Source: Escherichia coli
GTDB taxonomy: Bacteria > Pseudomonadota > Gammaproteobacteria > Enterobacterales > Enterobacteriaceae
DNA: 64,000 nt
Reading direction: 5' to 3' (one strand)
NCBI RefSeq assembly: GCF_041248615.1
Contig: NZ_CP158426.1
A program made the position numbers and the translations under genes. Position 1 is the stretch's first letter. Each line of letters begins with the position of its first letter. A model generated the notes under the pieces. That model was not told the origin of the DNA. It worked only from the letters and a program-made list of their open reading frames with translations, and made no database searches. Positions 32,912-33,001 of the stretch are shown here, piece after piece.

Positions 32912-32937
32912 TCCGGATAACAGAATTAACACGTAAC

Positions 32938-32965
32938 AAAGGGGGGCTAGTCCTCCCTTATTTTA
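32938..32965 (+). terminator. Putative intra-operon attenuator hairpin between pilin and usher genes
   Basis: Imperfect GC stem (ggggggctagtcctccc) followed by a T-rich tract, a position where fimbrial operons commonly have partial terminators. Confidence 0.4.
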
Positions 32966-33001
32966 ATTGTTTTAGTATTTGTTATGGATTTCAGGGTTGC
33001 C

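Follow-up and report, generated by a model that had tools for sequence, protein, structure and literature searches.

Partial terminators and stem-loops behind major pilin genes are already known from the pap, fim, CFA/I and CS6 systems, and the hairpin described here, found in a 64-kb stretch of E. coli DNA (hereafter the window), is an uncharacterised further example. That many fimbrial operons carry a leaky terminator at this place, as the original prediction stated, is documented: the P-pilus operon has a partial terminator placed between papA and papH (PMC6524683), fimA mRNA is ~8–12 times as abundant as that of fimI and fimC (PMC10673952), and in the CFA/I operon, which is homologous to the one studied here, cfaB mRNA is more abundant than that of cfaA and cfaCE (PMC6090259). 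In CS6 of ETEC, mutation or deletion of a cssB–cssC intergenic stem-loop alters expression; its loss raises transcript levels and abolishes the protein, and its role appears to be post-transcriptional (PMC8923064).

How does the locus compare? Its closest described relatives are the CFA/I (cfaABCE), CS1 (cooA) and CS4 (csaB) operons, which share with it the order of chaperone, major pilin, usher and tip adhesin genes as well as a GC-rich hairpin followed by a T-run, 14–35 nt past the pilin stop codon. The sequence of the CFA/I hairpin is unrelated (AGGAGGGGGTATG...CATCCCTCCT versus AAGGGGGGCTAGTCCTCCCTT here) and, unlike CFA/I, the present operon is chromosomal, lying between exuR and exuT with no adjacent Rns/CfaD-type activator seen. 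With pap it would share an intra-operon intrinsic terminator directly after the major subunit gene that lowers downstream transcripts (PMC6524683). However, pap and fim belong to another chaperone-usher class with another gene order, in which a minor or terminating subunit rather than the usher follows the pilin, and pap additionally undergoes RNase E processing upstream of papA. CS6 likewise places a stem-loop between structural subunit and assembly genes, but is of a different fimbrial class and has its chaperone gene downstream.

Our literature search on a cfaB/cfaC stem-loop, a cooA/cooC terminator and cblA transcripts returned nothing directly usable. A similar differential abundance has reportedly been described for cblA transcripts of the Burkholderia cable pilus operon. 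Transcripts are not discussed by He et al. 2020.

The CS1-like operon and its pilin-usher gap

The fimbrial genes and their surroundings in the window are the following:

Up to 31369, minus strand: yqjD, yqjC, mzrA, yqjA and exuR, E. coli chromosome neighbours
31665–32381, plus strand: periplasmic chaperone gene, first of the operon (open reading frame; Pfam PapD_N, E=6e-8; RefSeq "fimbria/pilus periplasmic chaperone")
32411–32911, plus strand: major pilin gene, CS1-type major subunit (open reading frame; Pfam Fimbrial_CS1, E=1.5e-22; RefSeq), with stop codon TAA at 32909–32911
33002–35686, plus strand: usher gene from its PGAP start, the reading frame being open from 32984 (Pfam Usher_TcfC, E=2.5e-58, TcfC and CooC_C)
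35683–36762, plus strand: tip adhesin gene, CfaE/CblD family (open reading frame; RefSeq; Pfam CblD, E=6e-99)
From 36838: exuT and uxaC, downstream of the fimbrial operon

Together, these form a four-gene plus-strand operon—chaperone, pilin, usher and tip adhesin—inserted between exuR and exuT. It is a chromosomal "CS1-like" operon of the alpha/class 5 fimbriae, a name already in use in genome papers (PMC2608844; PMC6033998), and the Pfam assignments bear out the pilin and usher identities proposed originally. There are 29 nt before the pilin gene, and usher and adhesin share a 4-nt overlap, leaving the 90 nt after the pilin gene as the sole sizeable gap within the operon. The hairpin occupies this gap, directly after the major subunit gene and, in the same operon, ahead of genes whose products are required in smaller quantity.

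The length of the gap depends on the usher start. A figure of 72 bp had been proposed, and the arithmetic is correct for the first in-frame ATG of the usher open reading frame at 32984, counted from the pilin end at 32911. With the RefSeq/PGAP start at 33002 the gap becomes 90 bp. The frame offers two in-frame ATGGAT starts, at these two positions, and the second is preceded by a candidate ribosome-binding site:

32993–32996, plus strand: Shine-Dalgarno-like AGGG of the usher gene (AGGA in other alleles), conserved in alignments and 5 nt before 33002

The codons between the two ATGs vary non-synonymously among alleles (TTC/TAC/AAC and GTT/ATT/ACA/ACT). Conservation of AGGG/AGGA combined with non-synonymous drift between the ATGs favours the start at 33002, and the true pilin-usher gap most likely measures 90 bp. 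In a Pantoea/Rahnella/Ewingella clade (seven loci), the usher Shine-Dalgarno sequence lies within a small conserved hairpin, CAGC-AGGA(U/C)-GCUG, just upstream of the ATG, an arrangement that might restrain translation of the usher; in E. coli no counterpart is present.

Of the 5426 complete E. coli genomes examined, 1917 contain the CS1-like operon, in every case on the chromosome. The allele of the window is rare, with only 5 of the 1917 genomes matching the whole operon region (31400–36840) at 99% or better, while 1673 match it at 90–95% and 238 at 80–90%; this allelic divergence is unusually deep for an E. coli chromosomal locus. The operon is also often decayed, the usher being truncated, carrying an internal stop or being interrupted by IS1/IS3 at six E. 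coli loci, and usher decay in several genomes suggests that many lineages can do without the operon or carry it in cryptic form. Two database records deserve a comment. The 353-kb E. coli "plasmid" NZ_MG591698.1 is the sole plasmid-labelled record with a near-identical pilin (98.2%); the DNA may stem from the chromosome and either ride on a large plasmid or have been assigned to one in error. SFGN01000125.1, a 5.7-kb contig labelled "MAG: Lachnospiraceae bacterium", carries the CS1-like operon of E. coli with 95% identity at the protein level and is almost certainly a mis-binned Escherichia contig.

A hairpin and U-rich tail on the sense strand

The elements of the putative terminator are these:

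32939–32959, plus strand: terminator-like hairpin, with 5′ arm AAGGGGGG (32939–32946), loop CTAGT (32947–32951) and 3′ arm CCTCCCTT (32952–32959)
32960–32975, plus strand: T-rich tail ATTTTAATTGTTTTAG, directly 3′ of the stem

The imperfect GC-rich stem followed by TTATTTT that had been read from the letters is indeed present, as the G-C core ggggggctagtcctccc at 32941–32957 and the TTATTTT at 32958–32964. In our consensus scan the full stem comprises eight pairs (five G-C, two A-U and one G.U) closed by a 5-nt loop; its folding energy on the plus strand is −10.8 to −11.8 kcal/mol. The stem is followed by ATTTTAATTGTTTT, the tail being ATTTTAATTG in the consensus scan. Counted from the last G-C pair the tail reads TTATTTTAAT, with 7 T in 10, and is of moderate quality, the U-tract being interrupted by A (UUAUUUUAAUU). 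A GC-rich stem-loop, an adjacent U-rich tract and a position on the sense strand past a stop codon are among the hallmarks of an intrinsic terminator, and these three are found here; the RNA 3′ end is predicted at ~32964–32968. A spacing of 27 nt separates the pilin TAA from the stem, and in a reporter study a ribosome on the stop codon ceased to suppress a terminator hairpin at about this spacing, ~27 nt (PMC4824070).

A neighbouring structure for comparison lies at the other end of the operon:

36785–36820: strong hairpin, the exuT terminator, between the adhesin stop and the exuT stop (16-bp stem, ~−25 kcal/mol, tail UUGUUUGGUUUUUU)

It shares with the pilin hairpin a GC-rich stem-loop and, behind it on the strand that is transcribed, a U-run, but it is far stronger, with 16 bp and ~−25 kcal/mol as against 8 bp and ~−11 kcal/mol. 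We assign it to exuT because the U-run is found on the minus strand only. On the plus strand an A-rich stretch precedes the hairpin and there is no U-tract, which indicates that the fimbrial operon ends without a canonical terminator of its own.

Is the pilin hairpin more than would arise by chance? Taken singly, it is unremarkable and only marginal against chance. Hairpin and tail together fold at −11.8 kcal/mol, the corresponding z being −1.9, with 9 of 200 shuffles folding equally well; for an 86-nt gap sequence z is −2.15. In our own scan of both strands of the window the hairpin ranks 66th among 154 comparable ones, and the consensus scan returned 13 terminator-like sites in 9 kb, no more than the 10.2 ± 3.0 seen in shuffles. 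By these figures, the structure might be a functionless hairpin in an AT-rich spacer that merely holds the usher ribosome-binding site. What raises it above chance is the comparison with homologous operons, given in the next section.

The hairpin is specific to one strand. As plus-strand RNA it folds at −11.8 kcal/mol versus −8.5 kcal/mol for its complement, owing to the G.U pairs in the stem. On the minus strand the tail is poor in T and there is no gene converging on the site, and a minus-strand terminator or DNA palindrome was rejected on these grounds. Likewise rejected was a dispersed REP/BIME-like repeat, the hairpin sequence occurring at one place per genome (median 1, maximum 2; none on plasmids; a single match within the window). 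In RefSeq, the hairpin carries no annotated feature. Our Rfam scan of the operon gave a sole match, to RF02059 (STnc50), which with 24.4 bits, where the gathering score is 55, and E=0.88 is sub-threshold and at chance level, and this identity was discarded. Strand asymmetry, single copy and the absence of anything but a chance-level Rfam match argue that the hairpin acts in the sense transcript of the operon.

Two insertions into the structure were encountered among its homologues. In E. coli strain A10, an IS5 element (1745–2955 of that locus) sits exactly in the loop CTAG (window 32947–32950) with a 4-bp CTAG target duplication, splitting the stem and separating pilin and usher genes by ~1.2 kb. 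On a plasmid of Pantoea sp. SOD02, an insertion of ~190 nt, in the stretch 2239–2500 of that locus, splits the homologous hairpin. Its ends read TAATGC/GCATTA, a portion of the stem is duplicated (GGCAGnTCGCCCC), and it resembles a small non-autonomous mobile element; an Rfam search with it gave no match.

Such insertions would fit a role at the DNA level, be it as a palindrome bound by a protein, as a dispersed repeat of the REP kind, as a target of transposons or as the terminator of an antisense transcript. We consider this extremely improbable. Not only is the sequence single-copy, off plasmids and found nowhere else in the window, but its G.U pairs make it imperfect as a DNA palindrome and weaker on the minus strand, where the tail is T-poor and a converging gene is lacking. 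As for the insertion in A10, CTAG is simply the target sequence of IS5.

Alleles and homologous gaps

For the E. coli comparison, eleven copies of the hairpin, in six versions, were folded (the window, IAI1, CFSAN061771, Z1323HEC0477, STEC383, SCPM-O-B-8794, MOD1-EC7003, E69, CUVET19-1704, KMi029 and 19SZHZ869Rt). All eleven keep a 7–9-bp stem (−9.9 to −15.9 kcal/mol) followed by the T-run, which is invariant among the alleles. Stem changes convert G.U to A-U or G-C to G.U, or shift the register, and pairing is preserved throughout: IAI1 has an inserted G together with a T to C change, yielding an extra G-C pair, and STEC383 and Z1323 have paired changes that move the register by one. The loop is the most variable portion. 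The commonest E. coli allele (IAI1-type) forms a perfect 9-bp stem at −17.8 kcal/mol, whereas that of the window is rare, being matched at 99% or better in only 5 genomes, and is the weakest seen, which, like its interrupted U-tract, counts against the terminator reading. With fixed columns, 98.4% of cells are paired. An in-register covariation analysis of the hairpin, done on fixed columns, gave zero doubly compensated pairs, a consequence of the register shifts between variants, and its shuffle control was uninformative with eight close sequences; conservation was judged by folding each allele instead.

The hairpin may also be viewed as part of a larger fold:

32910–32990, plus strand: long imperfect outer helix enclosing the hairpin (32910–32933 pairing with 32968–32990), predicted from the minimum free energy fold

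This helix appears in the minimum free energy structure of the window and of three of the five alleles folded. Among eight E. coli alleles 92% of its cells are paired, 6 of 21 pairs are broken in some of them and only one change is compensatory; the outer helix is not convincingly conserved. The spacing of the hairpin from the pilin stop codon is conserved (26–29 nt). Rather than a terminator of fixed strength, the hairpin could be the core of a larger regulatory structure, in which the outer helix of ~80 nt and the conserved spacing make termination or RNase III-type processing dependent on how ribosomes move along the pilin cistron; transcription of usher and adhesin genes would then follow the pace at which pilin is translated. 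The 92% pairing with its one compensatory change leaves room for such a scheme, the breaks in several alleles speak against it, and we rate it as highly improbable.

We then turn to the family as a whole. The homologues comprised the CFA/I, CS1 and CS4 operons of ETEC and plasmid operons of Pantoea, Rahnella and Serratia, to which a scan of a genome collection with usher N-terminal alignment added 22 loci. A gap was counted as positive if the 90 nt past the pilin stop codon contained a hairpin at least as stable as −8 kcal/mol with 5 or more T in 8 behind it. This was the case in 28 of 33 homologous pilin-usher gaps, compared to a background of 8.9% of dinucleotide-shuffled gaps and 4.8% of 609 flanking coding windows. 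Positive gaps include those of ETEC CFA/I, CS1 and CS4, Citrobacter, Lelliottia, Enterobacillus, Pantoea, Rahnella, Ewingella, Erwinia, Serratia and Shimwellia; the five lacking a clear T-run or hairpin are those of Yokenella, Pandoraea, Enterobacillus copy 2, Serratia AKBS12 and Pantoea SOD02. The stems fall into ~10 sequence classes that differ between clades, as exemplified by Citrobacter (ATGAACCGAAG...CTTCGGTTCAT followed by TTTTTT), Shimwellia (CAGGGGCGC...GCGCCCCTG followed by TTTT) and CS1 (CAGAGCAGC...GCTGCTCTG followed by TTTCTGTTT). Across the family, it is the position and the type of structure that are conserved, not the sequence.

These comparative data render a chance hairpin very unlikely, despite the marginal statistics of the single sequence. 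Hairpins at the same place in most homologous gaps, drawn from ~10 stem classes against a background of 5–9%, are not what a functionless spacer predicts, nor is the fact that every stem substitution among the E. coli alleles preserves pairing.

Proposed roles in termination, message stability and pilin stoichiometry

What, then, does the hairpin do? Probably, the hairpin at 32939–32959 and its U-rich tail constitute an intrinsic (Rho-independent) terminator of moderate strength inside the CS1-like operon, directly after the major pilin gene. It is most likely an ordinary leaky terminator that keeps the pilin message above those of usher and tip adhesin, and probably one that doubles as a 3′ stabiliser. 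The terminator anatomy, its retention in 11 of 11 E. coli copies and its recurrence in 28 of 33 homologous gaps lend support to what had originally been put forward, a leaky terminator setting the pilin-to-usher ratio.

That termination is part of the role is suggested by the enrichment of the T-run across the family. In the 10 nt following the most stable hairpin, chosen regardless of its tail, there are on average 5.8 T (58%), compared to 31% T elsewhere in the gap.

The alternative that the hairpin serves solely to stabilise the mRNA 3′ end has to be weighed against this. In such a scenario, no significant termination would take place; a full-length polycistronic RNA would be cut by endonucleases, and the pilin segment would outlive the rest due to a block of exonucleases at the hairpin. 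In its favour, PMC6090259, where it cites Jordi et al. 1993, ascribes the excess of cfaB mRNA in CFA/I to differential stability, and the same work is cited in a passage of PMC8923064 for stem-loops that enhance mRNA stability. Moreover, in some homologues, for instance Yokenella and Enterobacillus copy 2, a strong hairpin is found without a good T-run. Yet a pure exonuclease barrier has no need of a T-run that is enriched in the family and invariant in E. coli, and stabilisation does not exclude termination, the terminator reading already including it. We therefore deem stabilisation as the exclusive function unlikely. Since studies of CFA/I put part of the excess down to differential decay of mRNA, the hairpin could nevertheless be a 3′ stabiliser as much as a terminator, and in our view termination and 3′ stabilisation are two sides of one element.

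Under the preferred reading of a partial terminator that also protects the message, transcription would start upstream of the chaperone gene, and a fraction of the polymerases would release their RNA ~7–9 nt past the stem, around 32964–32968. The remaining polymerases would read through into the usher and tip-adhesin genes, whose products are required in far smaller amounts. Terminated chaperone-pilin transcripts would end in the hairpin and hence be protected from 3′-to-5′ exonucleases, so that termination and 3′ protection would both raise pilin mRNA over usher and adhesin mRNA.

We infer that termination occurs, that it is partial and that it shifts the stoichiometry quantitatively. Complete termination would be hard to reconcile with fimbrial assembly, for which usher and adhesin are indispensable, given that a consensus scan, which cannot exclude a promoter, detected no promoter-like (sigma-70-like) site between 32912 and 33002. 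Partial efficiency would also fit the short stem, the interrupted U-tract and a strength far below that of the exuT terminator. The sole transcriptome table found for this operon, from RNA-seq of non-O157 STEC and on an odd scale, gives the usher a logCPM of 27.18 and the pilin one of 24.05, without a pilin excess per kb. The CS1-like operon was probably barely expressed, almost silent, under the conditions concerned, and we take the table as weak counter-evidence to the terminator reading.

For annotation, the hairpin should be entered as an internal, probably partial, terminator and not be taken as an operon boundary. The current understanding of fimbrial gene regulation is left unchanged. 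If the reading holds, it would illustrate how one promoter can serve four genes and still, for each usher and tip adhesin, supply pilin subunits by the thousand. Class 5 fimbriae (CFA/I, CS1-type) throughout appear to use this same solution, including the ETEC colonisation factors that feature in vaccine constructs.
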